NCBI GenBank assembly: GCA_032124015.1 | Contig: JAQBEH010000096.1 | Span: 11,027-75,026, forward strand | Length of the DNA stretch: 64,000 bases | Source: Acidobacteriota bacterium | GTDB lineage: Bacteria; Acidobacteriota; Polarisedimenticolia; Polarisedimenticolales; DASRJG01 | Direction of reading: 5' to 3' | Shown here: positions 14,599 through 63,364 of the stretch, piece after piece | Numbering within the stretch: position 1 is the stretch's first letter | Layout: every line of letters begins with the position of its first letter | Position numbers and translations under genes: made by a program | Notes under the pieces: model-generated | What the model saw: the letters and a program-made list of their open reading frames with translations, nothing else | Database searches by the model: none | Told to the model about the DNA's origin: nothing

Positions 14599-14653
14599 CT
14601 TCGGCTACTCCGCACGTGTCATGTCTCACTCCTTGCGGTTGAGATTCCCGGCC

Positions 14654-17365: not shown

Positions 17366-17394
17366 CTCTCCTCCGCCTTACGAACCGGGAGATT

Positions 17395-35196: not shown

Positions 35197-35200
<4 letters not shown>
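33146..35200 (-). CDS. malQ: 4-alpha-glucanotransferase (amylomaltase, GH77) with an N-terminal extension
   Basis: In frame in track ORF 33146..35419. GTG 35200 overlaps the treS stop (GTGA). [31 protein letters not shown] and [10 protein letters not shown] are present. Confidence 0.85.
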
Positions 35201-38550
<3,350 letters not shown>

Positions 38551-38566
38551 CCCTACCCTTTCCGCG

Positions 38567-40546
38567 TTAGAGCCAATAGTCGAAATCGCGCTCCGTCTTG
38601 AGCTTGCGCCGCACGCGAAACACGTGCGCGGGCGCTACGGCGGGATCGATCTCGACGAAGTTCCGTTCTCCCCGCCACAGGAACCGCGCATCGCCGAGCA
38701 GGTCGTGGACCTGATACGACCCGCTCGTCGGAAGGCCGATATCGGCGAGGTCCACGTACCCGGAGTGACGGTGGTGGGGGTCGAGATTCGCGACGATGAC
38801 GAGGACGTTTTTTGCGCTCGCGTCGCTCCTGCTGAAGGCGAACAGCTCCTCCCGGTCGGTGTCGTGGAATCGCAGCCCTTCCATCGTTTGCAGCGCGGGG
38901 TTGTCTCGACGAATCCGATTCAGCCGGGTCACGAGCGCCCGCATCGGCCGGGCGCGGGCGAGATCCCAGCGCTTCATCTCGAACTTCTCCGAGTCGAGGT
39001 ACTCCTCCCTCCCGGTTGCTAGCGGCTCCGCCTCGCACAGCTCGTACGCCGGGCCGTAGATCCCGTAGGACGAGCAGAGCGTCGCCGCGAGGACGAGCCG
39101 GAGACGGAAGGCCGCGGGGCCTCCCGCCTGAAGAAACTCCGGGAGGATGTCCGGGGTGTTCGGCCAGAAATTGGGCCGCAAGAAAGCAGCGAGGTCCGCG
39201 TCGGTCAGGCTGGTCAGGTACTCGCGGAGCTCGCTCGCGGTGTTGCGCCACGTGAAGTACGTGTAGGACTGGTGGAAGCCGACCTTCGCCAGGCGAGCCA
39301 TCACCTTGGGTCGGGTGAAGGCCTCCGAAAGAAAGACCACGTCGGGGCGCTCCCGGCGAATCTCCGCGAAAAGCCACTCCCAGAATGCGTAGGGCTTGGT
39401 GTGCGGGTTGTCCACGCGGAAGACCCGGACGCCGCGCTCGATCCAGAACGAGACGACGTCGCGAAGCGCCTCCCACAGGGCCTTCCATTCGTCGCACTCG
39501 AAATCGAACGGGTAGATGTCCTGGTACTTCTTCGGGGGGTTCTCCGCGTAGCGGATCGCCCCGTCGGGACTTCGCCGGAACCAGCCCGGATGCTCCGCGA
39601 CCCACGGATGGTCGGGAGCGCATTGAAACGCGAGATCGAGGGCGAGCTCGACCCCTTTCGCCCTCGCCGACACGACGAGGCGGTCCACATCGCCGATCGT
39701 CCCCAGCGCCGGGTGGACGGCGGTGTGGCCGCCCTCGACCGCGCCGATCGCCCACGGGCTTCCCAGGTCCTCGGGACCGGCGACGGTCGCGTTGTTTTTT
39801 CCTTTTCGGTTGGTCCGACCGATCGGGTGGATCGGCGGCAAGTAGAGGACGTCGAACCCCATCGCCGCGATCTCGTCGAGGCGGGCTTCCACATCCCGCA
39901 GGGTCCCGGGGCCCGCATCCGCGCCCCAGACCGATCGAGGGAATATCTCGTACCAGCTCGAGAATCGTGCGAGGACGGGATCGACCTGGACCGGCAGCGG
40001 CTCGCTCCGGGCTGCGGGAGCGCGATCGGCGTAACGGTCCATCCGTTCCAACAGGTCGTCGGCGGTCGCCGCCGCGAAGCGTTCCGACAGCCCCACTTTC
40101 TTGTCGGCGAGCCGATGCGCGGCTTTGCGGAGTGCCTCCACGTCGTCGTCGGTGGCGCGCTTTTGGGCCTGCGACACGAGCCGTGCACCGGCGACGAGGT
40201 CTGAGCGGACGTCGTCGTACTGTTCCGCTGCGAACCACTTTTCAAGGTCGCGGCGCCAGGTCCGAAACCGGTCCACCCACGCCTCGACGCAAAATTCGTG
40301 AAAACCGAGGCACTCGGCCGGAAACGTGGCGCTCCAGACGTCGTTTTGGAGCGGTTCCAACGGCGTCTCGCGCCAGGCGGTTTCCCCTGGCCCTCGCCAT
40401 CGTGTTACGGCCCGGATGACATCGTGTCCGTCGGCGTGGATGTCGGCGGTGACCTCGATCCGATCACCGAGACAACCCTTCGCGGGAAACCGTCCGCCAT
40501 CTACGGACGGTCGGAGATTCTCGACGACGACTCGTGAGGGATGCAC
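38567..40546 (-). CDS. glgE: Alpha-1,4-glucan:maltose-1-phosphate maltosyltransferase
   Basis: Track ORF, 659 aa. VENLRPSVDGGRFPAKG and FSSWYEIFPRS are a typical GlgE N-terminus. GH13 core motifs follow. Confidence 0.9.
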   Translation of the reverse strand: MHPSRVVVENLRPSVDGGRFPAKGCLGDRIEVTADIHADGHDVIRAVTRWRGPGETAWRETPLEPLQNDVWSATFPAECLGFHEFCVEAWVDRFRTWRRDLEKWFAAEQYDDVRSDLVAGARLVSQAQKRATDDDVEALRKAAHRLADKKVGLSERFAAATADDLLERMDRYADRAPAARSEPLPVQVDPVLARFSSWYEIFPRSVWGADAGPGTLRDVEARLDEIAAMGFDVLYLPPIHPIGRTNRKGKNNATVAGPEDLGSPWAIGAVEGGHTAVHPALGTIGDVDRLVVSARAKGVELALDLAFQCAPDHPWVAEHPGWFRRSPDGAIRYAENPPKKYQDIYPFDFECDEWKALWEALRDVVSFWIERGVRVFRVDNPHTKPYAFWEWLFAEIRRERPDVVFLSEAFTRPKVMARLAKVGFHQSYTYFTWRNTASELREYLTSLTDADLAAFLRPNFWPNTPDILPEFLQAGGPAAFRLRLVLAATLCSSYGIYGPAYELCEAEPLATGREEYLDSEKFEMKRWDLARARPMRALVTRLNRIRRDNPALQTMEGLRFHDTDREELFAFSRSDASAKNVLVIVANLDPHHRHSGYVDLADIGLPTSGSYQVHDLLGDARFLWRGERNFVEIDPAVAPAHVFRVRRKLKTERDFDYWL

Positions 40547-49510: not shown

Positions 49511-51793
49511 GTGGGTACTCATCCTCGCGTCCTGCTCGTTTCGAACCGGCTTCCGGTGACGGTGGCAATCCGGGACGGCCGGGCGACCGTCAAGCCGTCC
49601 ACGGGCGGCCTCGCGACCGGCCTGACCGGACCCCACCGGGAGTCCGGCGGCCTGTGGTTCGGCTGGCCCGGGGACATCTCCGAAGCCACTCCGGATCAGC
49701 GCACCGAGATCGAAGCTCGATTGGCTTCGGACCGGCTGGTCCCCATCGATCTGGATCGCGAGGATCTCGAGCGCTACTACCACGGGCTCGCGAACGGCGT
49801 CTTGTGGCCGCTCTTCCACTACCACCAAGACTCGATTCCGTTCGACAGGGAAGACTGGAACCGGTACGTCGCCGTGAACGAACGATTCGCGCAGGCGGTG
49901 GCGGCCCATCACCAGCCGGGCGATCTGGTCTGGGTTCACGACTATCACTTGGCGCTCGTCCCCGCGATGCTCCGCGCACGGATTCCCGGCGCGCGCATCG
50001 GATTTTTCCTGCACATTCCGTTTCCCTCCTCCGAGGTGTTCCGCATCTTCCCCTGGCGCAAATCGCTGCTCTGGGGACTGCTCGGGGCCGACCTGATCGG
50101 GTTCCATACGCTCGGCTACATGCGCCATTTCCTCTCGAGTCTCACGCACGTCTTGGGGCTCGACACCGATCTCGACGAGGTGCTTCTCGAAAGTCGCGTG
50201 GTCCGGTGCGGCGCGTTCCCGATGGGGATCGACAACGCCGCCTTCCTCAGGCTTTCCGCCTCCGCACCCGTACGCCGCGAATCCGACAAGCTGCGGCGAG
50301 CGGCGGCGGGCGTTCGCATGGTGCTGGGCGTCGACCGCCTGGACTACACGAAGGGAATCCCCCGCCGCCTCGCGGCCTTCGAGCGTCTGCTCGAATCGTC
50401 GCCGGAGTATCGCGGACACGTCCAATTGCTCCAAATCGCGGCGCCGTCGCGTGAAAAGACTCCGGCCTACGCGTCCTTCAAGCGCCGGCTGGACGAACAG
50501 GTCGGCCGGATCAACGGCCGCTTCGGGACGCCGTCCTGGACACCGATCCGCTACGTGTACCGGGGATACGGCGTCGAGCGCGTGGTGGCGTTCTACCGCG
50601 CCGCGGACGTCATGCTCGTCACGCCGCTGCGTGACGGGATGAACCTCGTCGCGAAAGAATTCGTCGCCAGCCGCGACGACCTCGACGGCGTGCTGGTGAT
50701 TAGCGAGTTCGCGGGGGCGTCCGAGGAACTCGCGGAGGCCATTCAGATCAACCCCTACGATATCGACGGCGCCGCCGCCGCGATCCGCGCGGCGCTCGAG
50801 ATGGACGGGGATGAGCGCTCCCGGCGCATGGGCCAGCTTCGGGACCGAGTCCTCCGCCGGGACGTCCACCAGTGGGTCATGGATTTCCTGGACCGGCTGG
50901 CGGTCGATCGCCGCCGCGTCGCCGAGCGAGAGTTGACGCCGATTCCGTCGGACCTCCTCGCGGCCGCCGAAAGGCTCCTCGTCTTCCTCGACTACGACGG
51001 CACGCTCGTCCCTCTCGTCGACGACCCCGGCGCGGCGGTCCTCGATCCCGTGCTCATCGAGATCCTCGGCCGTCTCGCGCGGCGCCCTGGGGTCGACGTC
51101 GAGATCGTGAGCGGGCGGACCCCGGAATGGCTTGCGCGCATGTTTGCGACCCTGCCGATGGGATTGCACGCGGAGCACGGTGCGTGGAGCCGGAGTCCAG
51201 GCTCGTCCGAGTGGCGGAGGAACGTCCCGGAGTCGGCCGGATTCCAGGGCTTGCTCGACCGCGTGCGCCCCGTCCTCGCCTCGTTCGCCCGCTCGCATCC
51301 CGGGTCGTTCGTCGAGGAAAAAACGACCGGACTCGCGCTGCACTACCGTGCGGCCCATTCCGCGGACGCGGAACCGCAGGCCTGGGAATTGCGGCGCCAA
51401 CTTCTCGACCTGTTGTCAAACGCTCCGGTCTCGGTGCTCGCGGGGAACAACGTCATCGAGATTCGTCCTCAGGGGCTGCACAAGGGAACGATCGTTCCGC
51501 AAGTGCTCGCGCAGGCCGCAGCCGGCGCCAAAATCCTCGCAATCGGCGACGATCGCACCGACGAGGACCTCTTCGCGGCGCTCCCCGAAAACGCGATCAC
51601 GGTTCGGGTCGGCGGCGGTCCGACGCGCGCCGGCTGGAGGCTCAAGGGACCGGACGACGTGAGAGCCTTGCTCGCGGAGTTGGCGGGATGGGGCGAATTC
51701 GGCCGAGTTCGGTCCGACTCCAGGAGGCGTGACGATGAGCTACGACGAAAAGACCGCGGGGCGAATTCGAAAGCTCCTGTCGACGCATCCTGA
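49511..51793 (+). CDS. otsA: Bifunctional trehalose-6-phosphate synthase / trehalose-6-phosphate phosphatase fusion
   Basis: Track ORF, 760 aa, GTG start. [23 protein letters not shown] and [15 protein letters not shown] are OtsA (GT20) motifs. [10 protein letters not shown] and [10 protein letters not shown] are HAD OtsB motifs in the C-terminal third. Confidence 0.9.
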
Positions 51794-53120: not shown

Positions 53121-53588
53121 TCAGCCGCCGAAACCGAGGTCGCGGCAGAACGTCTCCTGTATCAAATCCGTCTCCTCGTGCTCGTGTTCCTCGAGGTGCG
53201 ACAGGATCGACAGGGCCCAACGCCGGAGGCGGACATCCTCGAGGGGCTTCGCCTCGCCGTAGACCATCGCCGCGCCGAGCAGCGCCCGGAGGTCCGCGAG
53301 CATCCGATCGTGGTCCCGGCGCAAGCTTTCGAGCGCCGCCGCGGCCGCGGGGTTCGCCCGTTCGATCTCCTCCAGCACTCCGCAGCTCTCCTCGTGACGG
53401 AAGTGCCGGAAGATCTTGTCGTGCAATTTCACGAGCCGCTCGGCGAAATCGGTGGCCCAGGTGTGGGCCCCCGGCGCGCCGATCTCGGGCCGCGCCGCCT
53501 CGAGGAACGTCCTCAGCGCGGCGATCATATTCCGGAGCTCTCGGTGCTCGCTGATGATCGTGTCGATAGTGGTGTCGACTTCCTGCAT
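53121..53588 (-). CDS. Hemerythrin-like (HHE cation-binding) domain protein
   Basis: In frame in track ORF 53121..53669. ATG 53588 is preceded by AGGAGG. His/Glu-rich helices (EHRELRNM, HFRHEE, HLEEHEHEE). Confidence 0.8.
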   Translation of the reverse strand: MQEVDTTIDTIISEHRELRNMIAALRTFLEAARPEIGAPGAHTWATDFAERLVKLHDKIFRHFRHEESCGVLEEIERANPAAAAALESLRRDHDRMLADLRALLGAAMVYGEAKPLEDVRLRRWALSILSHLEEHEHEETDLIQETFCRDLGFGG

Positions 53589-53598
53589 GACCGACCTC

Positions 53599-53790
53599 CT
53601 ATTTTTCCGTGGGAGTCTCTGGGGCGGCGGCACGCTGCACGGGCTCAGGCCGAACGCTGTTGCTCCCACATTGCGGGCACGTCCGTTCGGCTACCCGCTT
53701 CGGATCGTAATCGTCCACCTGGAATCGATGGTCGCCCCGAAGGCACTGGAACCACTTCTTGTCTCCCATCGTTCTCACGTCCCCCTTCAT
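53599..53790 (-). CDS. Small zinc-ribbon protein (56-63 aa)
   Basis: C-terminal part of track ORF 53599..54075. ATG 53790 overlaps the hdrA stop (ATGA). An alternative ATG 53769 is preceded by AAGGGGGA. FQCLRGDH...CPQCGS is a zinc-ribbon-like pattern. Confidence 0.55.
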   Translation of the reverse strand: MKGDVRTMGDKKWFQCLRGDHRFQVDDYDPKRVAERTCPQCGSNSVRPEPVQRAAAPETPTEK

Positions 53791-56249
53791 GCGCTCGGGA
53801 CCGCGGTGGCTGCCACCGTGGCGCGCCCCGGGCCGGATTCCTGCGCTTCGAGCACCCGCATCGTCGATTCCACTTCCTCGCGGGACACCTTGCGCAGCAC
53901 GCCGTCGAGCTCGGTCATCACCCGGACGAACTTCTGCCCCTCCGCGGCGCTGATGTACTCGAGCTGGAGCCGCTGGGGCCGGACGCCGAGCTGATCCATC
54001 CGGCTCCACATCTTCTCCACCCGCCGCTGAGTCCACGTCACCGCCTTGATGTAGTGGCAATCGGAGAAGTGGCACCCCGAAACGAGCACCAGCGGAGCGC
54101 CCTTACGGAAAGCGTGCCAGATGAATTTTTCGTCCACACGCCCGCTGCACATCGTTCGGATCAGGCGGACCGACGCCGGGTACTGCAGCCGGGACGTTCC
54201 CGCATTGTCCCCCCCCGCGTACGAGCACCAGTTGCAAGCGAACGCGACGATCTTGTCCATCGGCTCATCGGCGAGGATGGCGTCGATCTGCGCCAGGATC
54301 TGCTGGTCGGAAAAATGCCGCATCGTGATCGCGTCGACCGAGCACTCGGCCGCGCAGGTCCCGCACCCGGCGCAGGCCGCCTCGACGAATACGGGGTACC
54401 GATGTTCCTTCTTTTTCGGCTCCGAGATCGCGTTGTAGGGGCACACGCGCGCGCATCGCCCGCAGAAGTTGCACAGCGTCTCGTCGAATTGCGCGGTGAT
54501 CGCCTCGACGCGGACTTGGCCGGCGGAGAGCAAGTTGCCCGCGCGGGACGCCGCCGCACCGGCCTGCGTCACGGAATCCTTGATGTCCTTCGGCGCTTCC
54601 ACGCATCCCGAAAAGAACACTCCGCGCGTCGGCGCATCGACGGGGCTCAGCTTCGGATGAGCCTCCATCACGAAACCGTCCGAGGTGTGCGAGAGGGTCA
54701 GGAGCTTCTCGACGTCGGGGCTGCCGTTCGCGGCGACGCGGGGTACGAGACCGACCGCCAGCACGAGCATGTCGAGCCGGTGCTTTTCCATGCGTCCCGT
54801 CGTCGTGTTCTCGACGTGCACCACGAGGTCGTGCGAGGCGGGGTCTTCTTCCACCAGGCCCGGGAGTCCCCGAACGTATCGCGCCCCGGACTCCCGGCTC
54901 CGCCGGTAGAGGTCTTCGAATCCCTTCCCGGATGCCCGAATGTCCGTGTAGAAAACCGTGGAGCTCGCTTCCGGATAGTGCTCGGCGATTTGCAGCGTCT
55001 GTTTGATCGTGTTCATGCAGCAGATGTTCGAGCAGTAGGGCACGCCCTCCGACGCGCACCGCGACCCAACGCATTGCACGAACCCGATCGACCGCGGTTC
55101 GCGCTGATCCGAAAGGCGCAACAGATGACCGCCCGTCGGTCCCCCGGCGCAGATCAACCTCTCGAACTCCATGCTGGTGACGACGTTGGGAAAGCGGGTC
55201 CAACCGTACTCGTCGTTCCGTCGCGGGTCGTACACGTCCATGCCGGTGGCGACGACGATCGCCCCGACCGGAATGTCCAGAATCTCCGGAGTCATGTCGA
55301 AGTCGATGCACTTCTTGTCGCAGACCTCGAGACATCGACCGCAGGTGAGTGGCTTGTTGCCGAGGCAATTCTCCATGTCCAGCGCGTACGCCGAGGGGAC
55401 GGCCTGAGGAAACGGCGAGTAGATCGCCTTGCGGGAAGAAAGGCCCTGCTGGTACTCGTCGGGGACGACGACGGGGCAGACCTTGGCGCATTCTCCGCAC
55501 GAGGTGCAATCCGATTGCGAGACGTAGCGCGGGTTGCGGCGAACGCGCACCCTGAAGTTCCCGACGAAACCGCCGACGTCTTCGACTTCAGAACCGACCA
55601 GGAGCTTGATCCGCGGATGTCGACCGACATCCATCATCTTTGGGCCGAGAATTCATATCGAGCAGTCCATCGTCGGGTAGGTCTTGTCCAACGTGGACAT
55701 GATCCCGCCGATGGACGCCTGCCTCTCCACCAGGTAGACCTGGTGCCTGGCCGCGGCCAGCTCCAGCGCGGCCTCGATCCCGGCGACCCCGCCTCCGATC
55801 ACCATCACCGCATCGGTGACCGGGAACGTCTTTTCGTCCTGCGCCTCCAGGAGCCTCGCGCGCTCGACGGCGCTGTGAACCAGGTCTCTCGCCTTTCGCG
55901 TCGCGGCGGCGCGGTCTCCCATGTGAACCCACGAGCATTGCTCGCGGATGTTCGCCATCTCCATCAGGTAGGGGTTGAGTCCCGCCTGGGCCACGCACCG
56001 GCGAAAGGTCGGCTCGTGGATCTTGGGCGTGCACGACGCCACCACGACCCGGTCGAGGTCGTGCTCGGCAATGGCCTTCTTGATCTCGTTCTGCCCGGGA
56101 TCGGCGCAGGTGTACCGGTTGCGGACGACGACGGCGACGCCCGGCAGCGTTTTCGCGAAGCGGGCCACGTCCTCGGTGTCGACGGTGCCGGCGATGTTCA
56201 GGCCGCAGTCGCAGACGAACACGCCGATGCGTTGGGCTGGTGAGGTCAT
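53787..56249 (-). CDS. hdrA: Heterodisulfide reductase subunit A-like flavoprotein fused to an MvhD-like domain, with an in-frame TGA (55653-55655) read as selenocysteine
   Basis: Track ORFs 55653..56384 and 53787..55637 are in one frame, separated only by TGA. The joined sequence is ...LDKTYPTMDCSI-U-ILGPKMMDVGRHPRIKL. ATG 56249 is preceded by GGGAGGAG and overlaps the upstream stop (ATGA). N-terminal VFVCDCG Fe-S motif, GGGVAGIEAA FAD motif, internal ferredoxin Cys clusters. The C-terminal FACNWCSYAGGD...VSGCHFSDCHY is an MvhD/FlpD-type domain. Confidence 0.85.
55608..55638 (-). other. Candidate bacterial SECIS hairpin downstream of the hdrA UGA
   Basis: In mRNA sense the sequence is GGAUGUC-GGUC-GACAUCC (55632 down to 55615), a perfect 7-bp stem with a 4-nt GGUC loop starting 20 nt after the UGA. 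Flanking GAU/AUC could extend the stem across an internal loop. Confidence 0.5.
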
Positions 56250-57406
56250 CGTGCTCCTCCCGGATCCGCGAGAAGGCTCGCGGCGAGAACCGTGAAGTCC
56301 AAAACCTCGATCGACGGCCCCCCGACCCCTGCGCGCCGGGCTTCGGCTTGTGCGCAGGAGAAATGGATGAGGCACTTGGGGCATGCCGTGACGAGCGTCG
56401 ACGCCCCGGTGGCCGACGCCTCGGCGAGCCGGTCGTACTGGATCGCCCGGCTGGAGGCGTCGCAGTGGATGAAACCGCTCGTCCCGCAGCAGGCCGCGTC
56501 TCGTCCGGTCCGGGGCATCTCGACGAGCGTCGCGTTCGGGAGGGCCTCGAGCACGCGGCGTGGAGCGTCGACGATTCCCATGTGCCGGCTGAGCCGGCAG
56601 GGGTCTTGGTAGGTGAGCGTCCGGTCGCCTCCGGTTCTAAACGTCAAGGCGGAGCGGGCGACCTGCTCCGCGACGAACTCCGAGACGTGCTCCACACGCG
56701 GGGCGTACCCTCCTGCGACTTCCGGATAGTCGAGCTTCCATGTCCGACAGCACTCGGCGCACGCGGTCACGATGCGCTTCACGCCGCGGTCGGCGAACGC
56801 CTTCGCGTTCGCCTGCGCCAGCGCGGTGAACGCTTCGCGTTCGCCGTTCCAGAAGAGGTCGTGCCCGCAGCATCGTTCCTCGGGGACCAGCACGGGACGG
56901 ATCCCCGCGCCGTTGAGCAACCGGATGGCCGACCGCGCGATCTCCAGAGGCCGCACGCCGAGCTCGGGTCCGAAGTACGCGTCGAAGAGCGGAAGGCAGC
57001 CGACGAACAGCCCGACCTCACCTTCCTCGGCGATCTCGAGGCCGTCGCCGAGCGAGGACACGTCCCTCGGAGGCGGCGGCTCCACGGCCATCGAGCGGGC
57101 CGCGTGCTGGAACACGCCTCCGTGCGGCGCCGGCGGATGCGATTCGAGAGGGATCTTCTCGCGCAGGCCCCGAATGAAATCCGTGAAGCGAACGCCCTGG
57201 GGACAACGAACCTCGCAGGAGCCGCAGGTCAAGCACCGCCCGACAGCTTCGCCGTGATCGTGGAACTCGTCCTCGAGTCCTTCGGCCACGATGAGGCGGG
57301 CGGAAAACCGCCCCGGGCTCGCGAGCGGGCACATGCTCGTGCATTTTCCGCAGGCCAGACAGCGCGCGGCACCCGTGGAACGCCTCAGTTCCGCATTACG
57401 GCTCAT
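56246..57406 (-). CDS. HdrC/HdrB fusion-type iron-sulfur protein (two 4Fe-4S motifs plus two CCG domains)
   Basis: In frame in track ORF 56246..58093. ATG 57406 overlaps the upstream stop (ATGA). CLACGKCTSMCP and CLTCGSCEVRCP resemble HdrC. EERCCGHD and DAACCGTSG are CCG domains as in HdrB. Confidence 0.85.
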   Translation of the reverse strand: MSRNAELRRSTGAARCLACGKCTSMCPLASPGRFSARLIVAEGLEDEFHDHGEAVGRCLTCGSCEVRCPQGVRFTDFIRGLREKIPLESHPPAPHGGVFQHAARSMAVEPPPPRDVSSLGDGLEIAEEGEVGLFVGCLPLFDAYFGPELGVRPLEIARSAIRLLNGAGIRPVLVPEERCCGHDLFWNGEREAFTALAQANAKAFADRGVKRIVTACAECCRTWKLDYPEVAGGYAPRVEHVSEFVAEQVARSALTFRTGGDRTLTYQDPCRLSRHMGIVDAPRRVLEALPNATLVEMPRTGRDAACCGTSGFIHCDASSRAIQYDRLAEASATGASTLVTACPKCLIHFSCAQAEARRAGVGGPSIEVLDFTVLAASLLADPGGAR

Positions 57407-59781
57407 GACGCGCCCCCCGTTCCGACGAACGTCGCGACGGGGTCCTCCAACCGGTCGAAAGCCCTTCCGGCGGACCAGTCCGTGACGACGCGGTCGGCGC
57501 CCGATCCCAGCAGCTTCAACAGGGCTTGCGCTCGCGCGACTTCCGCCGCAGCGAGCCTGGCGCCCGGTCCGAACCGACAGCGGTCTTCGGCGCACCCCGC
57601 CACCAGCACGTGCGCGCCGCCTCGCCCGGCCAGGTCGAGCAGCATGCCGGCGTCCACCTGTCCGACGCAGCGCAGTCGGATCACCTCGACGCGGATTCCG
57701 GATCGTTCGAGGGCCGGCTCGAGCGCCCCCGCCCGCCGCTGGCAGGCGAGAACGACGTGTCTCGTCGCGCTCCCGTCGCGCGGGGCCAAGGCATCGGCGA
57801 TCCTGCGTCCCCACCATTCCGGAGACAGAGCGCTCGAACGAGCCGCGTCGGTCGAACAGACCGACGTGCAGAGGCTGCAGCCGCGGCACAGGGCGGGCTC
57901 GATGCGCGCCCGCTTGCGTCCGTCCGCGCCGTCCACCAAGGAGACCGCGTGGAACGGGCAGACCTCGACGCACTTGGCGCAGCCCCGGCACCGATCCTCG
58001 ACGACACGGTTCCGCACCGGGAGGAGCTCGAGCGCGAGCGCCTCGGAGAGATCGACGCTGGAAGCGACCGGGCCGCACTGCGGGAGAAGCCACGCGGGGG
58101 CCGGGCGTTCGACGTCGAGCGACAGCGCCACGGTCGCCGGCACGCGGAGCAACGCGGTCGACGCGTTCCGTTCGCCATTGACGGTGCGGATCATCACGTG
58201 CCGGCGCTCACAGGACGAAGCACAGGTCCGGCACTCGCCGCACGGTCCGCACCGCAGGCAGCGCCGCGCCTCGGCGACGGCCTCGGCGGCGGTGTACGCC
58301 TGCTCGACCTCGGCGAACTTTTTCCCCCGGGACGGTGCGATCGTCGCGGGACGGATCCGCGTCGCCTCGACGGGGGTCGCGTCGGGGATCTCGTACTCTT
58401 CCGCGGCGCGACCCTCCGGCCGTTCCTCGCGGATCGCCGCGCGGCCTTCCGTGAGGAACCGGCGGACCGATTCGGCGGCGCGATGCCCGGCCGCGATCGC
58501 TTCGATGATGGTCGCCGGACCGGTCACCATGTCCCCCGCCGCGAACACGCGGCCGAGACGCGTCAGCGACGTCCGTTCGTCGATCTCGATCCGGTCGTCG
58601 GGGCACGCCTTCGCGCGTACGTTCGACGGGAGGAAGGAGAAGTCGACCCGCTGCCCCACCGCGGCGAGAACGCCGTCGGCTGAGATCTTGAATTCGGTTC
58701 CGGGGATCACGATCGGCTCGCGCCGGCCCTGGGCATCCACCGGGCCGAGGCCGACCTTCTTGCATTCGAGGCCGACCAGCCGGCCGCCGTCGGTGAGCAC
58801 CTGCGACGGTGCGACCAGGTATCGGAAGCGAATCCCCTCCGCCTCGGCGGCTTCGACCTCGTCGGCTCCGGCGAGGAGCTCGTCCTGGGACCGCCTATAG
58901 AGGATCTCCACGCGGGAGGCGCCGAGGCGTCGCGCGGTGCGCGCGGCCTCGATCGCCGTCGAGCCGCCGCCGATGACCAGGACGTGCCGCCCCGCGGTGC
59001 GCAGATCGCCCCCGTTGACCCGACGCAGGAAAGCGAGCGCGTCCTGGACGCCGCGGCATCTCTCTTCACCGGGGACGCCGAGCTTGCGCCCCACCTGCGC
59101 GCCCACGGCGAGAACGACTGCTTCGTATCCGCGACCGCGCAGCGCGTCGAGCTCGACGTCCGTCCCGAGCCGCGTGCCGGTCCGGATCTCCACTCCCGCG
59201 CGCTCGAGCACGCCGATCTCCGCGGCGAGGACTTCGCGCGGGAGGCGGTAGGCCGCGATCCCGTAGCGGAGCATCCCACCCGGTTCCGCCTCCGCCTCGA
59301 ACACGGTGACGGGGAATCCGGCGAGGCGAAGGTCGTACGCCACCGTGAGGCCGGCGGGGCCGGAGCCGATCACCGCTACGGCCGGCCCGCGCGCGTCTCC
59401 CGAAGGCGGCGAGGGACGCGGCAGCTCGCGCTCGAGGTCGGCGACGAACCGCTTGAGGGAACGGATGGACACCGGTTCGTCCACGCGCCCGCGCTTGCAC
59501 GCCAACTCGCAGGGATGGCTGCAAACTCGGCCGCAAATCCCGGGGAGCGGACAGCGCCGCCTCACGACCTCGAGCGCCTCGGCGAAGCGGTGCTCGGCGA
59601 CCAGCGAGACGTACGCCTTGACCTGGACCCCGGCGGGGCAGGCCTGCGTGCACGGGGCCGGGACGATACGGCGGACCGGAATCGCGGAGGGTTGAAGGGA
59701 GGGCGCCCACAAACCCCTTCCGGCCAGGTCTTCGAAGCGGCTCACGGAAGCCGAGAGAGTCGAGGTGGTCTGTGCCTTCAT
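57403..59781 (-). CDS. NfnB/GltD-like NAD(P)H:flavin oxidoreductase fused to a 2x[4Fe-4S] ferredoxin module and a C-terminal MvhD-like domain
   Basis: Track ORF, 792 aa. ATG overlaps the upstream stop (ATGA). N-terminal Cys clusters (CPAGV, CPLPGICGRVCSHPCELAC). VAVIGSGPAGLTVAYDL and VLVIGGGSTAIEAA are dinucleotide folds. CRGCAKCVEVCP and CRGCSLCTSVC are ferredoxin motifs. The tail HVVLACQRRAG...LRCVGQVD...VAGCAEDRCRF is MvhD-like. Confidence 0.85.
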   Translation of the reverse strand: MKAQTTSTLSASVSRFEDLAGRGLWAPSLQPSAIPVRRIVPAPCTQACPAGVQVKAYVSLVAEHRFAEALEVVRRRCPLPGICGRVCSHPCELACKRGRVDEPVSIRSLKRFVADLERELPRPSPPSGDARGPAVAVIGSGPAGLTVAYDLRLAGFPVTVFEAEAEPGGMLRYGIAAYRLPREVLAAEIGVLERAGVEIRTGTRLGTDVELDALRGRGYEAVVLAVGAQVGRKLGVPGEERCRGVQDALAFLRRVNGGDLRTAGRHVLVIGGGSTAIEAARTARRLGASRVEILYRRSQDELLAGADEVEAAEAEGIRFRYLVAPSQVLTDGGRLVGLECKKVGLGPVDAQGRREPIVIPGTEFKISADGVLAAVGQRVDFSFLPSNVRAKACPDDRIEIDERTSLTRLGRVFAAGDMVTGPATIIEAIAAGHRAAESVRRFLTEGRAAIREERPEGRAAEEYEIPDATPVEATRIRPATIAPSRGKKFAEVEQAYTAAEAVAEARRCLRCGPCGECRTCASSCERRHVMIRTVNGERNASTALLRVPATVALSLDVERPAPAWLLPQCGPVASSVDLSEALALELLPVRNRVVEDRCRGCAKCVEVCPFHAVSLVDGADGRKRARIEPALCRGCSLCTSVCSTDAARSSALSPEWWGRRIADALAPRDGSATRHVVLACQRRAGALEPALERSGIRVEVIRLRCVGQVDAGMLLDLAGRGGAHVLVAGCAEDRCRFGPGARLAAAEVARAQALLKLLGSGADRVVTDWSAGRAFDRLEDPVATFVGTGGAS

Positions 59782-60347
59782 GGAGTCGCCTCCACCGCCT
59801 CGCCGGTGCGCGCGATCGACCGGCCGAGCTCGAGTCCCCGCGTGAACGCCGCGAGGTTCAACTCCTCCGTCCCGCTCGGCACCGACTCACGGATCGCTTC
59901 ACGCATCGCGTCCGGCGAGACGACATCCGTGGCCGCGGTGAACACTCCCGCCATGACCATGTTCGCAGCGATCCTCTTACCCAACTTCTCGGCGGCAAGT
60001 GTGGCGGGGACGGAGACGACCCGCACGCGGTCCACGTCGCCGGGAGTGACGAGCGACTCGTCGACGATGACGATTCCGCCGTCCCGCACCTCTCCAACGA
60101 ACGTCTGGTACGCGTCCTGGGACATCGCGACGAGAATGTCGGTGCCGCGGACGTACGGGTACATCACCTGCTCGTCCGAGACGACGAGCTGAGCGCTGCA
60201 CGCGCTCCCCCGCGCCTCGGGACCGAAGGCCTGATTGAGCGTCGCGTGCCGCCCGTCGACGACCGCGGCCGCCCGGCCGACCACGTAGGCGCAGAGGATC
60301 ATCCCCTGACCGCCCAAGCCCGAAAACCGCATCTCGGTGGTCGCCAC
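59778..60347 (-). CDS. 2-oxoacid:ferredoxin oxidoreductase, gamma subunit
   Basis: Track ORF, 189 aa, GTG start (alternative ATG 60333). RFSGLGGQGMIL is a typical gamma-subunit N-terminus. Confidence 0.85.
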   Translation of the reverse strand: MATTEMRFSGLGGQGMILCAYVVGRAAAVVDGRHATLNQAFGPEARGSACSAQLVVSDEQVMYPYVRGTDILVAMSQDAYQTFVGEVRDGGIVIVDESLVTPGDVDRVRVVSVPATLAAEKLGKRIAANMVMAGVFTAATDVVSPDAMREAIRESVPSGTEELNLAAFTRGLELGRSIARTGEAVEATP

Positions 60348-60362
60348 GGCCGTCGCTCCCTT

Positions 60363-61259
60363 CTACCGATCCAGCAGCGCCCGCCGCTCGGAGCGGTCGG
60401 TTCCCGCCGCGTCGATCCGCGTATAGGCCTCGCCCAACGCCGCCTTCATGCTCTCGTCGATCTTGTCCTGGAGGGTCGGCTTCTCGATGTCGACGAAGGT
60501 CCCGATCGTGATCCGCCCTTTGAAGCCGATGTCTACCGTCCCCGGATCGGCGCCGTTGCGCACGTCGGTCATGTCGCGGAGCATCCGCATCCAGTCGAGG
60601 CCGGAACCGAGCTTGTTGCGGCGCGTGTAAAGGGTCGGACAGGGACTGATGACCTCGACGAACGCGAAGCCGCGCTTGGCGAGGGCGGCCTCCATCGAGC
60701 GGATCAGCTGCCGCACGTGGAGGGTCGTCCAGCGGGCGACGTACACGGCGCCGCAACTCGCCGCAAGAGCGGGGAGGCTGAACGGGTGCTCGAAGGTTCC
60801 GTAGGGGGTCGTCGGGCTCACGGCACCCAGCGGCGTCGTCGGGGCGACCTGGCCTCCGGTCATCGCGTAGTTGAAGTTGTTGACGCAGATCACGGTGAGA
60901 TCCACGTTCCGCCGGGCGGCGTGAATGAAATGGTTGCCGCCGATCGAGATGAGGTCGCCGTCTCCGCTGAACACCACGACCTTGAGCCCGGGATTCGCCA
61001 GCTTGAGGCCGGTGGCGAACGGGATGGCGCGGCCGTGGGTCGTGTGGAAGGAATCGAGCCGGACGTAGCCGGCCACGCGACCGGTGCAGCCGATCCCGGA
61101 AACGACCGCGACCTTGTCGAGGTCCAGCTTCGATCGGACGAGCGCCTCGGTGAAGCTCGACAACGCGGTGCCGATCCCGCACTCCGGGCACCAGATGTGC
61201 GGGAGGCGGTCGGAACGGAGGATGGCCTCCCCGGGATGACCGTGCGGCGTTGCGTTCAT
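60363..61259 (-). CDS. 2-oxoacid:ferredoxin oxidoreductase, beta (TPP-binding) subunit
   Basis: In frame in track ORF 60363..61877. ATG 61259 overlaps the alpha-subunit stop (ATGA). WCPECGIG, SGIGCTG and GDGDLISIGGNHFIHAARRN are beta-subunit motifs. Confidence 0.9.
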   Translation of the reverse strand: MNATPHGHPGEAILRSDRLPHIWCPECGIGTALSSFTEALVRSKLDLDKVAVVSGIGCTGRVAGYVRLDSFHTTHGRAIPFATGLKLANPGLKVVVFSGDGDLISIGGNHFIHAARRNVDLTVICVNNFNYAMTGGQVAPTTPLGAVSPTTPYGTFEHPFSLPALAASCGAVYVARWTTLHVRQLIRSMEAALAKRGFAFVEVISPCPTLYTRRNKLGSGLDWMRMLRDMTDVRNGADPGTVDIGFKGRITIGTFVDIEKPTLQDKIDESMKAALGEAYTRIDAAGTDRSERRALLDR

Positions 61260-62413
61260 CCGTTCACCTCGACGATGGCGGCGTAAATACTCCGAGGGTC
61301 GTGCACCCAGCCTCCGGCGTGAGGGACGTGGATCGTCCTCGCCCGCCCGCCGGCGCATCGCTCGACCTCGAGTGCGATCTGGCCGAGATTGATCTCGGGG
61401 ACCACGAAGCCACGGACGGAGCGCGCGAGCTCGGCGATCCGCGCTTCGGGAAACGGCCACAGGGTGATGAGGCGCAACTCTCCGACGGCGCGCCCCTCGG
61501 CTCGCGCCTGCTGAACCGCGGCGCGCGCCACCCGGGAGGTAATCCCGTACGAGACGACCACGACCTCGGCCCCTTCGATGTTCGATTCTTCGACGCGGAA
61601 GATGTCCGGCGCGTTGCGGCGGATCTTTTCGATCAGGCGCGGCACGAGGGCTTGCTGGGCGGCGGCGGTCATCGCCGGGTACCCCCGTTCGTCGTGCGTC
61701 AGCCCGGTGGTGTGGATCCTGTATCCCTGTCCTGCGGCCACCATCTCCGGGACCAGATCCGGCCCCGGACGATAGGGCCTGTACTCCTCCGGCGAAAGCG
61801 CGGTCATGCGGCGCGGAACGAGGTCGATGGCCTCGTACGACGGAACCACGACCTTTTCGGTCATGTGGCCGACGCACTCGTCCATCATCAGTAAGGTCGG
61901 GACGCGGTAGCGCTCGGACAGGTTGAACGCGTCAATCGTCAGGTCGAACGCTTCCTGAGGGGAGTTGGGCGACATCGCGATGATGGCGTAGTCGCCGTGC
62001 GAACCCCACCGCGCTTGCATGACGTCGGCCTGGCCGACCATCGTCGGGAGGCCGGTCGAGGGGCCGCCCCGCTGCACGTTCACGAGCACGCAGGGGACTT
62101 CCATCATGACGCCGAGACCGAGGTTTTCCATCATGAGAGAAAAACCGGGGCCCGACGTGCAGGTCATCGCCTTCGCTCCGCCCCACACGGCGCCGAGGAT
62201 CGCGGCCATGGCGGCCATCTCGTCCTCCATCTGGATGAAGACGCCGCCAACCCGGGGAAACCTCCGCGCGACCCGCTCGGCGATTTCGGTCGAGGGGGTG
62301 ATCGGATACCCGGCGAAGAACCGGCACCCCGCGACGACCGCGCCTTCGGCGCACGCGTGATCGCCGTCGAGGTAGTGGGCGCCCGTGAGCATGACCGACG
62401 GGTCAGGATTCAT
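61256..62413 (-). CDS. 2-oxoacid:ferredoxin oxidoreductase, alpha subunit
   Basis: Track ORF, 385 aa. FFAGYPITPSTEI and TSGPGFSLMMENLG are alpha-subunit motifs. Confidence 0.9.
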   Translation of the reverse strand: MNPDPSVMLTGAHYLDGDHACAEGAVVAGCRFFAGYPITPSTEIAERVARRFPRVGGVFIQMEDEMAAMAAILGAVWGGAKAMTCTSGPGFSLMMENLGLGVMMEVPCVLVNVQRGGPSTGLPTMVGQADVMQARWGSHGDYAIIAMSPNSPQEAFDLTIDAFNLSERYRVPTLLMMDECVGHMTEKVVVPSYEAIDLVPRRMTALSPEEYRPYRPGPDLVPEMVAAGQGYRIHTTGLTHDERGYPAMTAAAQQALVPRLIEKIRRNAPDIFRVEESNIEGAEVVVVSYGITSRVARAAVQQARAEGRAVGELRLITLWPFPEARIAELARSVRGFVVPEINLGQIALEVERCAGGRARTIHVPHAGGWVHDPRSIYAAIVEVNG

Positions 62414-62702
62414 GGTGCGCCTCCGGGCCCGAAGACTCCGTGACGCCGACCGCGAATTCGGGGCAGAGGACCTCGCAGTAGTGGCACGCGGTGCAGCGCT
62501 CTTGCGCGACGATCTCGGGAGGATGGTAGCCCTTGAGGTTGAAACGGTTCGACACCGCGAAGACGTCGCGCGGGCAGAACTCGACGCAGTACGCGCACCC
62601 CTTGCAGCGCTCCTCGAGAATGTGGATCGAACTCCGGACCCGCGGAATGCGATCCGCGTCCAGAGGGACCCGCCAGAACCGTTCCGCCGCGGGTGGTCTC
62701 AC
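62403..62702 (-). CDS. 2-oxoacid:ferredoxin oxidoreductase, delta (2x[4Fe-4S] ferredoxin) subunit
   Basis: Track ORF, 99 aa. GTG 62702 is preceded by AGAGGAGG and overlaps the marR stop (GTGA). CKGCAYCVEFCP and CTACHYCEVLCP are ferredoxin motifs. It overlaps the alpha-subunit start by 11 nt. Confidence 0.8.
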   Translation of the reverse strand: MRPPAAERFWRVPLDADRIPRVRSSIHILEERCKGCAYCVEFCPRDVFAVSNRFNLKGYHPPEIVAQERCTACHYCEVLCPEFAVGVTESSGPEAHHES

Positions 62703-63325
62703 GAGACCTCCTCTTTCACGACCGGTTTCCGGCCTCGGCGTCTCGACCGGATCGTGTCGTAAGGGCAGTGGCCGAAAACGTCACCGATAGGACAACCCAC
62801 CTCGCAATACGCGGCGCAACGGAGGCAGAAACCGCCCTCGCCTTTCTCCTGCTCGAAAAGGAGAACCGAAAATCGCTCCAGAAGATCCGAGAGGCGGTCG
62901 ATCTCGGCCGCTTCGAATTTTGCGAGGACGAGCGCAAGCCGCTCCCTCTTGAGTTGCTCGTAGCGGCGGATGAGGTCCCGCCCCTTGGCGCTCGCCGACA
63001 GGAGCGTGGCCCGGCGATCCTCATCGCAGGAACCGCGTTCGACGAGGCCCAATCGACAGAGGCGGTCGATGTTCTTGCTCGCCGCCGGGGCGCTGACGCC
63101 GAGAAACCCCGCGACTTCTCCAACCTGGTGGTGGCCGTTCAAGCCGATGAGCTTGAGCAGATGGAATTGCGGGATCGAGAGGGAGCGGGCGGACACCTCG
63201 GCCAGGTATCGGCTTTCGAGGATCTCGCGGACCGCTGAGCTGAAGATATGACTACAGCGCAAGAGACGATAAGGCGGACCACCGACCCGGTCCGCGCTGG
63301 GTGTGTGCGCGTCGTGTCGCTGCAT
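62699..63325 (-). CDS. MarR-family transcriptional regulator with a Cys-rich C-terminal extension
   Basis: Track ORF, 208 aa. The winged-helix core is ...LSIPQFHLLKLI...VGEVAGFLGVSAPAASKNIDRLCRLGLVER...DRRATLL. The tail is GGFCLRCAAYCEVGCPIGDVFGHCPYD. Confidence 0.8.
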   Translation of the reverse strand: MQRHDAHTPSADRVGGPPYRLLRCSHIFSSAVREILESRYLAEVSARSLSIPQFHLLKLIGLNGHHQVGEVAGFLGVSAPAASKNIDRLCRLGLVERGSCDEDRRATLLSASAKGRDLIRRYEQLKRERLALVLAKFEAAEIDRLSDLLERFSVLLFEQEKGEGGFCLRCAAYCEVGCPIGDVFGHCPYDTIRSRRRGRKPVVKEEVS

Positions 63326-63364
63326 GATCGTTAACCCGGTTTCTATTTTACGGAGTTAACGATC
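63326..63364. promoter_or_regulatory. Candidate operator/promoter of the marR-led operon: inverted repeat GATCGTTAAC-N19-GTTAACGATC around a TAAAAT box
   Basis: Perfect 10-bp arms at 63326-63335 and 63355-63364. The first arm abuts the marR ATG (63325). On the minus strand TAAAAT (plus 63345-63350) lies between the arms. The region is locally AT-rich in a GC-rich genome. Confidence 0.4.

Follow-up and report, generated by a model that had tools for sequence, protein, structure and literature searches.

A conserved ten-gene block joins a 2-oxoacid:ferredoxin oxidoreductase to a selenocysteine-containing Hdr module with a putative NAD(P)H input: a candidate electron-bifurcating or confurcating system in Acidobacteriota and other bacteria

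Results

Gene content and layout of the block

We analyzed a 64,000-nt stretch of the genome of an Acidobacteriota bacterium (GenBank assembly GCA_032124015.1, contig JAQBEH010000096.1, positions 11,027 to 75,026; hereafter, the window), in which positions 53121–63325 hold ten consecutive, tightly packed minus-strand genes in a background of 64–72% G+C. In gene order, these encode a MarR-family regulator, the delta, alpha, beta and gamma subunits of a 2-oxoacid:ferredoxin oxidoreductase, a GltD/NfnB-like flavoprotein, an HdrC/HdrB fusion (HdrCB), an HdrA-MvhD fusion containing selenocysteine (Sec), a zinc-ribbon peptide and a hemerythrin protein (Table 1). An earlier interpretation made from the letters of the window without database searches (the sequence-only reading) had described these genes as one unit; all ten open reading frames (ORFs) were confirmed, the domain content that it had proposed agreed with the Pfam and NCBIfam assignments, and the ten genes indeed behaved as a single conserved block across several phyla. 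The best explanation of the block is one regulated unit in which a bifurcating or confurcating system, built on HdrA and linked to NAD(P)H, would be wired to a 2-oxoglutarate:ferredoxin oxidoreductase, an account that, taken as a whole, we hold to be somewhat probable.

Re-reading of the junctions revealed six start/stop overlaps of 4 nt and one overlap of 11 nt, the two other junctions being gaps of 15 and 10 nt. The list given by the sequence-only reading was reproduced, with one reservation: the ATGA overlap between the HdrA and zinc-ribbon genes may instead be a 17-nt gap, since the zinc-ribbon orthologues have their first residue at the position of Met8 in the window (ATG 53769), which is preceded by the purine-rich AAGGGGGA. 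A sigma-70 promoter scan returned no sites, and terminator-like sites were no more numerous than expected from shuffled sequence, with none convincing within the unit; thus, a single transcript is neither supported nor contradicted by these scans.

Table 1. Features of the block at 53121–63325, including gene junctions and candidate control elements (nt, nucleotides; aa, amino acids)
Feature	Position	Strand	Basis or description
MarR-family regulator, 208 aa	62699..63325	-	Pfam MarR/MarR_2, E ~1e-11
Oxidoreductase delta, 99 aa, 2x[4Fe-4S] ferredoxin-like	62403..62702	-	Pfam Fer4/Fer4_7
Oxidoreductase alpha, 385 aa	61256..62413	-	Pfam POR_N + PFOR_II
Oxidoreductase beta, 298 aa, thiamine diphosphate (TPP)-binding	60363..61259	-	Pfam TPP_enzyme_C 3e-33
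Oxidoreductase gamma, 189 aa	59778..60347	-	Pfam POR 1.5e-32; NCBIfam PRK08537
NAD(P)H-input flavoprotein (putative), 792 aa	57403..59781	-	Pfam Fer4_20, Pyr_redox_2, Fer4_7, FlpD; NCBIfam PRK12771
HdrC/HdrB fusion (HdrD-like), 386 aa	56246..57406	-	Pfam Fer4_8 + CCG x2
HdrA-MvhD fusion, 820 aa, Sec at codon 199 (MDCSI-U-ILGPK)	53787..56249	-	Pfam FlpD 3e-44
Sec codon TGA + SECIS-like hairpin	55615..55655 (TGA 55653-55655, hairpin 55615-55632)	-	Comparative analysis
Zinc-ribbon peptide, 63 aa (Met1) or 56 aa (Met8, 53769)	53599..53790	-	Weak Pfam Zn_ribbon_8, E 0.002
Hemerythrin (HHE cation-binding) protein, 155 aa	53121..53588	-	Pfam Hemerythrin 1.8e-10
Inverted repeat GATCGTTAACCCGGT / ACGGAGTTAACGATC, adjoins MarR start codon	63326..63364	.	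GTTAAC-containing
MarR/delta junction	62699	-	GTGA, 4-nt overlap
Delta/alpha junction	62403-62413	-	11-nt overlap
Alpha/beta junction	61256	-	ATGA overlap
Beta/gamma junction		-	15-nt gap
Gamma/flavoprotein junction	59778	-	ATGA overlap
Flavoprotein/HdrCB junction	57403	-	ATGA overlap
HdrCB/HdrA junction	56246	-	ATGA overlap
HdrA/zinc-ribbon junction	53787	-	ATGA overlap
Zinc-ribbon/hemerythrin junction	hemerythrin ATG at 53588	-	10-nt gap

Conservation across lineages

A genome scan with the 792-aa flavoprotein as the query and one genome per species returned 80 loci, against which all ten window proteins were run by tblastn. The oxidoreductase genes lay, in the order delta-alpha-beta-gamma, directly upstream of the flavoprotein gene in every locus that had the HdrCB fusion and enough upstream DNA (14/14); L032, with upstream DNA too short to judge, stands outside this count. 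The loci comprise L001–L007, whose record titles name Acidobacteriota, Thermoanaerobaculia, Phycisphaerae or an uncultured bacterium, and L044, L047, L049, L054, L063, L067 and L072, titled Desulfobacterales, Desulfobacteraceae, Syntrophobacteraceae or delta proteobacterium. The Sec-HdrA gene was visible in 12 of the 14, where the contig extends far enough. A protein search with HdrCB found 895 relatives at E ≤ 1e-20, and the six long contigs with top matches all carried the block from MarR to hemerythrin, including one from a Krumholzibacteriia metagenome-assembled genome (MAG); L088, which is truncated, shows the block from delta onward. One of these contigs is that of L004, so that five loci were new and the adjacency was found in 19 of 19 informative related loci. 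The start/stop overlap between the gamma and flavoprotein genes was kept throughout L081–L092. The window matches MAG GCA_032123015.1 and several others of one species, and the nearest named relatives of its proteins belong to Acidobacteriota and Krumholzibacteriia. The adjacency of the oxidoreductase to the Hdr trio, which the sequence-only reading had described from this one genome, is not unique to it; the gene arrangement is far beyond chance, real and widespread.

The Desulfobacterota version differs from that of the window in the length of the flavoprotein (~1120–1150 aa), which ends in the ferredoxin domain, in the position of MvhD, which forms the N-terminus of a ~528-aa MvhD-HdrC-HdrB protein, and in accessory genes, as tblastn found no MarR, zinc-ribbon or hemerythrin gene there. 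The order of the flavoprotein, MvhD and HdrCB domains along the DNA is equal in both versions, and the gene boundary alone shifts. Domains that are fused in one lineage and split in another usually mark physical partners. In addition, a single 759-position NCBIfam profile, NF045663 ('pyridine nucleotide-disulfide oxidoreductase/dicluster-binding protein', diclust_near_Sec), matches the flavoprotein with its N-terminal part (4e-50) and HdrCB with its C-terminal part (1e-17). The migration of MvhD between genes, together with a profile that joins both halves, argues for one complex containing the flavoprotein, MvhD and HdrCB. In the Desulfobacterota loci (L067:5865-10832, L044:9539-14512 and L047:5783-9232), the flavoprotein has in its middle an unassigned stretch of ~500 residues.

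Two further groups of loci carried parts of the block. In the Bathyarchaeia locus L062 (2420–17347), a homologous flavoprotein-ferredoxin gene lies beside a gene for a GcvH-like lipoyl protein, together with two MvhD genes, a gene for a double HdrA-like protein of 1010 aa and two HdrC/HdrB pairs, and without a 2-oxoacid oxidoreductase; the layout is alike in L009, L010, L048, L059, L060, L064 and L066. The lipoyl protein is a possible disulfide substrate in these clusters. Because Bathyarchaeia carry this NAD(P)H-Hdr 'engine' without the oxidoreductase, the engine is modular. In L024 (10001–13236), L033 (4263–7499) and L028 (4338–7768), from MAGs of Syntrophomonadaceae, Bacillota and Moorellales, oxidoreductase-like genes come directly after a short GltD-like gene, namely alpha and beta with 28–32% identity to the window subunits in L024 and L033, and beta alone in L028. 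Hdr genes were not detected in these three loci, whose genes may encode NAD(P)-linked 2-oxoacid oxidoreductases.

The four-subunit oxidoreductase

The KorDABC/OorDABC four-subunit domain set (ferredoxin, POR_N/PFOR_II, TPP_enzyme_C and POR) is complete in the block. The alpha subunit passed the generic NCBIfam model PRK08659 with 555 bits (cut-off 411), the only model passed among the subunits. Its matches in the PDB included a Pyrococcus 2-keto-acid enzyme (1yd7, 5e-113), the alpha subunit of a 2-oxoglutarate synthase (8ys5, 7e-80) and the Magnetococcus 2-oxoglutarate:ferredoxin oxidoreductase (6n2n, 1e-64), with the alpha part of pyruvate:ferredoxin oxidoreductase far behind (5e-15). The beta sequence shows a GDG...NN motif and four Cys, and its top NCBIfam matches were 2-oxoacid and 2-oxoglutarate beta families; those of delta were OGOR_delta and OorD, both under the curated cut-offs. 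Over the whole NCBIfam ranking, 2-oxoglutarate families stood well above the pyruvate, isovalerate and indolepyruvate families, and scores fell below the 2-oxoglutarate-specific cut-offs (OorA, 366 vs 579; OGOR_delta, 65 vs 125; OorC, 95 vs 216; PRK09628 beta, 222 vs 364).

The oxidoreductase is most likely the citric-acid-cycle 2-oxoglutarate enzyme, a prediction made mainly because citric-acid-cycle genes surround the block in the Acidobacteriota relatives. There, a citrate synthase gene is divergent from MarR and the alpha and beta genes of a class I fumarase come right after the hemerythrin gene, with genes for malate dehydrogenase, glutamate dehydrogenase and a PEP-utilising enzyme nearby and citrate lyase in one case. 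In the Krumholzibacteriia locus, too, a citrate synthase gene comes after the block. The Desulfobacterota loci have no citric-acid-cycle context; their flanks hold a ROK kinase, a glycogen debranching enzyme, a thiolase, a nitroreductase and an acetyl-CoA synthetase, and no conserved partner gene emerged from them.

The NAD(P)H flavoprotein and the HdrC/HdrB fusion

Residues ~42–520 of the flavoprotein are GltD/NfnB-like, with two [4Fe-4S] clusters and Rossmann folds for flavin adenine dinucleotide (FAD) and NAD(P)H predicted, and are followed by a 2x[4Fe-4S] ferredoxin domain (593–646) and an MvhD [2Fe-2S] domain (697–786). The N-terminal part matched the NfnB, StnC and GltD relatives in the PDB at 1e-58 to 1e-111.

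HdrCB combines a 2x[4Fe-4S] part (two CxxCxxCxxxC motifs) with two complete CCG motifs, C137-x41-CCG-x35-CxxC and C270-x35-CCG-x34-CxxC, which agree with the reference pattern for non-cubane [4Fe-4S] clusters, two CX(31-41)CCGX(34-36)CXXC. The Cys of both CCG and both CxxCxxCxxxC motifs were 96–100% conserved among 119 homologues. In a Foldseek search with an AlphaFold model of HdrCB (pLDDT 85, pTM 0.88), the top structure was Mycobacterium smegmatis EtfD (9OJN, 3e-15, TMq 0.71) with LutA next, and HdrB (3e-8, TMt 0.65–0.68) and HdrC (probability 0.99–1.0) were also recovered. EtfD is a quinone-linked enzyme. In sequence, HdrCB stood nearer to TfrB, LdhH and GlpC than to true HdrB (just 6e-4): the strongest PDB match was again EtfD 9OJN (4e-24), the top NCBIfam match was TfrB (3e-40, under its cut-off), and CoB_CoM_SS_B gave 19 bits against a cut-off of 345. 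Because of these fold matches and the proximity to TfrB, LdhH and GlpC, we class HdrCB as an HdrD-type protein, whose chemistry, disulfide reduction or electron hand-over, is not readable from its sequence. Unlike EtfD, TfrB, LutA and GlpC, HdrCB is devoid of a membrane or haem domain and of an FrdB-like [2Fe-2S] part, and it scores far under the family cut-offs; the quinone, thiol and lactate substrates of those proteins cannot be transferred to it.

Selenocysteine in HdrA-MvhD

Residues 6–661 of the HdrA part aligned with residues 4–652 of Methanothermococcus thermolithotrophicus HdrA (5ODC_A) at 2e-220 (phmmer), with similarity in the cluster domain at the N-terminus, in the FAD domain, which is thioredoxin-reductase-like, and in both the inserted and the C-terminal ferredoxin domains, and the tail (665–781) matched MvhD at 6e-36. 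Bifurcating activity of this HdrA is predicted from its homology to the solved bifurcating HdrA.

An in-frame TGA takes the place of the second Cys in the MDCSICILAPK motif of 5ODC_A. The TGA was kept in the window and in every one of the 20 related loci checked (21 in total); a Bathyarchaeia homologue has TGC and lacks the hairpin. A hairpin resembling a selenocysteine insertion sequence (SECIS) starts 20 nt after the TGA, with a 7-bp stem (GGATGTC/GACATCC) and an invariant GGTC loop; across 16 distinct sequences, 97% of the stem was paired, against 24–58% when the partner strand was slid, and one pair was compensatory (C:G <-> U:A, both sides changed). The scan for promoters and terminator-like sites also picked up this hairpin. 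Rfam at gathering thresholds gave no family and no SECIS match in the whole window, so the SECIS call draws on the comparative analysis. Reading the TGA as selenocysteine, with HdrA as a single 820-codon frame, is well supported by these comparisons. Public annotations of the window's species (L081–L086) split HdrA at this codon into ORFs of 198 and 616 aa. In Methanococcus maripaludis HdrA, a Cys-Sec pair has been seen between cluster A3 and FAD and proposed as a relay (PMC13518236), and the Sec position in the window corresponds to the Sec197 CxxU site of that protein.

Accessory genes and a candidate operator

MarR opens the block in L087 and L089–L092, and tblastn placed it upstream of delta in L001 and L004–L007. 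Its C-terminal tail (62699–62830) carries four Cys, C167, C170, C178 and C187 (C-x2-C-x7-C-x8-C), which were invariant in a six-sequence orthologue alignment with otherwise 47–74% identity, and this tail may form a metal or Fe-S redox-sensing element. GTTAAC-containing inverted repeats occur at the site equivalent to that of the window repeat in L087 (3984–4018), L092 (3079–3135) and L091 (3943–3954); the repeat at 63326–63364 is a plausible MarR autoregulatory operator controlling the unit.

The zinc-ribbon peptide contains a CPxCGSNSVR knuckle, and its orthologues read CxxC...CPxCG; the second Cys of the first knuckle is replaced by Gly in the window and L092, where three Cys and a nearby His remain. 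The gene is kept at the same position in L087–L090 and L092 (51–86% identity) and is uncalled in the public records L081–L086. A role as a rubredoxin-like redox carrier was considered and down-weighted, as one of the four Cys is lost in this genome. The hemerythrin gene closes the block in L081–L092, with a fusion to CBS domains in L088. Both proteins are taken to be accessory and may serve in O2 or iron-centre protection, and a protective role of the hemerythrin protein would fit an assembly with about twenty Fe-S clusters by motif count.

Genomic surroundings and the search for a high-potential partner

The sequence-only reading had seen no gene for a terminal substrate, and none became visible in the scopes searched. 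A tblastn search with E. coli FrdA and FrdB gave no match to either protein, and thus no FrdA/TfrA, in the window or in the loci with Hdr and oxidoreductase genes, with at most 10 kb of flank per side; over all 92 fetched loci, FrdA/TfrA gave a single weak match, which fell in L021, an unrelated locus. The annotated window genes include none for DsrC, a lipoyl protein or a hydrogenase, and no genes for coenzyme M/coenzyme B (CoM/CoB) were seen in the window. The genes in the window flanks were also weighed as a source of the partner substrate and rejected as unrelated: a LysE exporter, an OtsA-OtsB fusion, Na+/H+ exchangers, Usp proteins, an amino-acid permease, MscS channels, GlgE, TreS-Mak, amylase-family genes, a protein kinase, a sulfatase and a SnoaL protein. 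The SnoaL gene is divergent and lies on the opposite side of the block from the LysE/OtsA-OtsB/trehalose-alpha-glucan flank.

Some neighbouring genes merit a description of their own. The window contains a dense trehalose/alpha-glucan gene set at 24126–40546 and 49511–51793, comprising amylase-family genes (24126–27107 and 29407–31545), a TreS-maltokinase fusion (35197–38550), GlgE (38567–40546) and the OtsA-OtsB fusion (49511–51793); between these lie genes for MscS channels, Na+/H+ exchangers, Usp proteins and an amino-acid permease-Usp fusion. Judged by its gene content, this region looks like an osmotic-stress island. An 838-aa DUF255/thioredoxin-like protein is encoded at 21820–24336, and a CitMHS/DASS-type transporter with TrkA-C domains at 19043–20821. 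L092, which among relatives with a long contig is the closest, has directly after the block (13541–17737) genes for the small and large subunits of a [NiFe] hydrogenase, a cytochrome b subunit and a HycI-type protease, a set that is absent from the window.

Comparison with known systems

Tubeworm symbionts, Thioflavicoccus mobilis and an aquifer MAG share a conserved cluster for the reductive tricarboxylic acid (rTCA) cycle with the order frdB-frdA(tfrAB)-hdrC-hdrB-korD-korA-korB-korC-hdrA-flxD-flxC-flxB-flxA-aclBA, for which direct bifurcation onto the 2-oxoglutarate enzyme was proposed (Rubin-Blum, Dubilier and Kleiner 2019, PMC6315080). The kor-hdr cluster of the symbionts acts as an operon, with transcribed intergenic regions and co-expression (Mitchell et al. 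2024, PMC11636981), and a 2026 survey repeats the bifurcation model (PMC13147460). For Syntrophobacter fumaroxidans, 'HdrAL/POR (Sfum_0012-0018)' has been listed and was undetected in proteomes (Sedano-Nunez et al. 2018, PMC5947623). The sequence-only reading was not aware of a described system in which Hdr is joined with the operon of a 2-oxoacid oxidoreductase; PMC6315080, PMC11636981 and PMC5947623 describe such loci, and the claim that there is none is incorrect. The published kor/hdr clusters are hypotheses, none purified, and the window adds a differently built version.

Compared by published description with the cluster of Endoriftia, the Escarpia symbiont and T. mobilis, the block shares a korDABC set contiguous and co-oriented with hdrA and hdrC/B, an NAD(P)H-input module carrying an MvhD-type domain, and a di-iron protein of the O2-protection type at the end (rubrerythrin there, a hemerythrin domain in the window); NADH-driven bifurcation feeding the 2-oxoglutarate enzyme is hypothesised for both. 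The input module is FlxABCD in the symbionts and one GltD/NfnB-like-ferredoxin-MvhD polypeptide in the window. The symbionts have separate hdrC and hdrB, with kor placed between hdrCB and hdrA, whereas HdrC and HdrB are fused in the window, and the window HdrA, unlike theirs, is fused to MvhD and contains Sec. Genes for MarR and the zinc-ribbon peptide are added in the window, while tfrAB (thiol:fumarate reductase) and aclAB belong to the symbiont cluster, and the window is without tfrA/frdA and flxABCD. Sfum_0012-0018, again compared by description (PMC5947623), is like the block in combining an Hdr-like set (HdrA, HdrL) with an enzyme of the pyruvate:ferredoxin oxidoreductase type. The Syntrophobacteraceae MAG loci L047 and L063 have the same gene order as the window, and we infer that Sfum_0012-0018 corresponds to a locus of this type.

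Likeness to the methanogen complexes MvhAGD-HdrABC and Hdr-Fwd/Fmd (PDB 5ODC, 7BKB; PMC13518236) extends to full-length HdrA homology, the CxxC/U site, MvhD entry, the HdrC-like 2x[4Fe-4S] part and the HdrB-like double CCG motifs. Methanogen Hdr is hard-wired to a CO2-reducing enzyme via ferredoxin-like subunits (PMC13518236). The donor there is a hydrogenase or formate dehydrogenase, against the NAD(P)H flavoprotein proposed for the window, and the accepting enzyme is formylmethanofuran dehydrogenase, against a 2-oxoacid oxidoreductase; the window shows no sign of CoM/CoB. Desulfovibrio FlxABCD-HdrABC, as far as it is described in PMC6315080 (citing Ramos et al. 2015), is likewise a bacterial NAD(P)H-dependent Hdr system with an MvhD-type connector, for which bifurcation to ferredoxin and a protein disulfide (DsrC) was proposed; on that description, the block differs in being linked to an oxidoreductase operon and not to an alcohol dehydrogenase, with no DsrC nearby. 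Membership in this family was rejected, as homologues of FlxA, FlxB and FlxC are absent and just an FlxD-like MvhD domain is present, in fused form. The N-terminal 520 residues of the flavoprotein have the same 2x[4Fe-4S]/FAD/NAD(P)H architecture as NfnAB/GltD (PDB 4YLF, 5JCA; StnC 8OH5), from which the protein departs by its extra ferredoxin and MvhD domains. Membership in the NfnAB transhydrogenases was likewise rejected: the NfnB-like part is present and the block holds no NfnA-like gene. The bifurcating flavin is likely to be that of HdrA and not that of the flavoprotein.

Discussion

The analysis shows which genes the block contains, their conservation, the Sec recoding, the intact motifs and the migration of a domain; from these, and by analogy with solved Hdr complexes, a complex, an electron path and its direction can be proposed. 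NAD(P)H would be oxidised at the FAD of the GltD/NfnB-like flavoprotein, and electrons would pass through its Fe-S clusters and the MvhD [2Fe-2S] cluster to the FAD of Sec HdrA-MvhD, where the pair would be split. The low-potential electron would travel via the HdrA ferredoxin domains to the oxidoreductase (delta, beta cluster, TPP), directly or through free ferredoxin, and drive the conversion of succinyl-CoA and CO2 to 2-oxoglutarate; the high-potential electron would travel via the HdrC-like clusters to the two CCG sites, presumably of the non-cubane type, and on to an acceptor not encoded in the block. The hardware would equally permit the reverse mode, in which electrons from 2-oxoglutarate oxidation and from a high-potential donor merge to form NAD(P)H, and we regard the reductive, bifurcating and 2-oxoglutarate-forming direction as only slightly more likely than the oxidative one. 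The unit would be controlled by MarR, with its four-Cys tail and the GTTAAC repeat at its start. NAD(P)H has a potential of approximately -320 mV (NADPH physiologically ~-370 mV), and the succinyl-CoA + CO2/2-oxoglutarate couple one of ~-500 mV. On these approximate values, the second acceptor would lie above roughly -140 to -240 mV, a range that would admit fumarate (through a thiol couple), a partner linked to quinones, or a protein disulfide.

The electron-bifurcating or confurcating interpretation put forward by the sequence-only reading, once its claim to novelty is set aside, is the most reasonable reading of the conserved set of NAD(P)H, oxidoreductase and CCG parts. Independent support comes from Gammaproteobacteria, which pair korDABC with hdrABC through a different NADH module, flxABCD (PMC6315080, PMC11636981); as two differently built NAD(P)H-Hdr modules are each tied to korDABC, Hdr and the oxidoreductase probably work together. 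Several observations weigh against this interpretation. The window flanks are unrelated to the citric-acid cycle, and the 2-oxoacid is not proven, as the subunits score under the 2-oxoglutarate-specific cut-offs. On the acceptor side, no FrdA/TfrA was found in the window or in the loci with both Hdr and oxidoreductase genes, the block has no DsrC, lipoyl protein or membrane cytochrome b, and the closest structural match of HdrCB is EtfD, not a disulfide reductase. The S. fumaroxidans version was undetected in proteomes (PMC5947623), and the evidence for the block and its relatives is genomic and, for the symbionts, transcriptomic. The flavoprotein-Hdr module occurs without any oxidoreductase in Bathyarchaeia, and in no locus seen was a subunit of the oxidoreductase fused to one of Hdr or to the flavoprotein, so that adjacency is what speaks for physical contact between the oxidoreductase and Hdr.

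These last two points bear most directly on the possibility that the block encodes two co-regulated but separate enzymes, a ferredoxin-dependent 2-oxoglutarate oxidoreductase and an NAD(P)H/ferredoxin/X Hdr enzyme, linked by a soluble ferredoxin encoded elsewhere. Four-subunit 2-oxoacid oxidoreductases normally use free ferredoxin, and the Bathyarchaeia module, beside its GcvH-like lipoyl protein, illustrates such a module occurring apart. However, adjacency in 19/19 informative loci and the translational coupling of the gamma and flavoprotein genes are strictly kept in distant phyla, the block contains no ferredoxin gene, and Gammaproteobacteria independently put korDABC between hdrCB and hdrA (PMC6315080); we therefore regard separate enzymes as somewhat unlikely, if still to be reckoned with. 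At the opposite extreme stands a self-contained 'bifurcating 2-oxoglutarate synthase', in which the low-potential branch of HdrA would be hard-wired via delta, and NAD(P)H together with a high-potential acceptor would drive CO2 fixation onto succinyl-CoA. A novel couple of thiol and disulfide might act as the acceptor in such a hard-wired synthase, as might a partner linked to quinones, or else the zinc-ribbon and hemerythrin proteins as an O2-directed sink. We put this specific form forward tentatively, as an unlikely candidate.

A non-bifurcating 2-oxoglutarate:NAD(P)+ oxidoreductase, with Hdr as extra wiring, a redox sensor or a device for thiol-based repair or activation, finds support in the GltD-like genes that directly adjoin distant alpha/beta-like genes without Hdr in L024, L028 and L033. 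NAD(P)-dependent relatives with an extra flavoprotein subunit exist in Azoarcus KorABC and the phenylglyoxylate enzyme PadEFGHI, and the NCBIfam PadE/G/I families were among the weak matches. Such an enzyme leaves the conserved full-length HdrA (2e-220), the costly Sec recoding and the two invariant CCG motifs unexplained, and appears quite improbable. A fortuitous neighbourhood or an annotation artefact, for example a HdrA pseudogene broken by a stop codon, might be suggested by the public annotations that split HdrA at the TGA and by the lack of an Rfam SECIS match. It is effectively refuted by the comparative data, namely the TGA conserved in 21/21 loci, the hairpin with its compensatory change, both HdrA halves retaining full similarity to 5ODC_A, and the block kept across phyla. 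Among these accounts, we continue to favour, with due reserve, an HdrA-based system wired to the 2-oxoglutarate enzyme.

The finding bears on how bacteria that run the reductive citric-acid cycle, or its reductive branch alone, obtain electrons negative enough for 2-oxoglutarate synthesis. A direct link between Hdr and the oxidoreductase has so far been a hypothesis drawn from genomes and transcripts of tubeworm symbionts, which are unculturable. Strict conservation of a second version, of another construction, in several unrelated phyla strengthens this hypothesis considerably. What is new relative to the published cluster is the NAD(P)H input module, the subunit fusions, the selenocysteine, the lack of a fumarate reductase, and the phyla concerned. 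The variant provides compact seven-protein gene sets and one cultured host, Syntrophobacter fumaroxidans, and it narrows the remaining question to the high-potential partner of the bacterial soluble HdrD-like protein. The hard-wired synthase, if it proves true, would give bacteria a counterpart to the Hdr-Fwd supercomplex of methanogens, one that would have evolved at least twice, with Flx-type and GltD-type NAD(P)H modules. Its hosts would include uncultured Acidobacteriota-like bacteria and Desulfobacterota, which are not reported to have it in the rTCA literature consulted.

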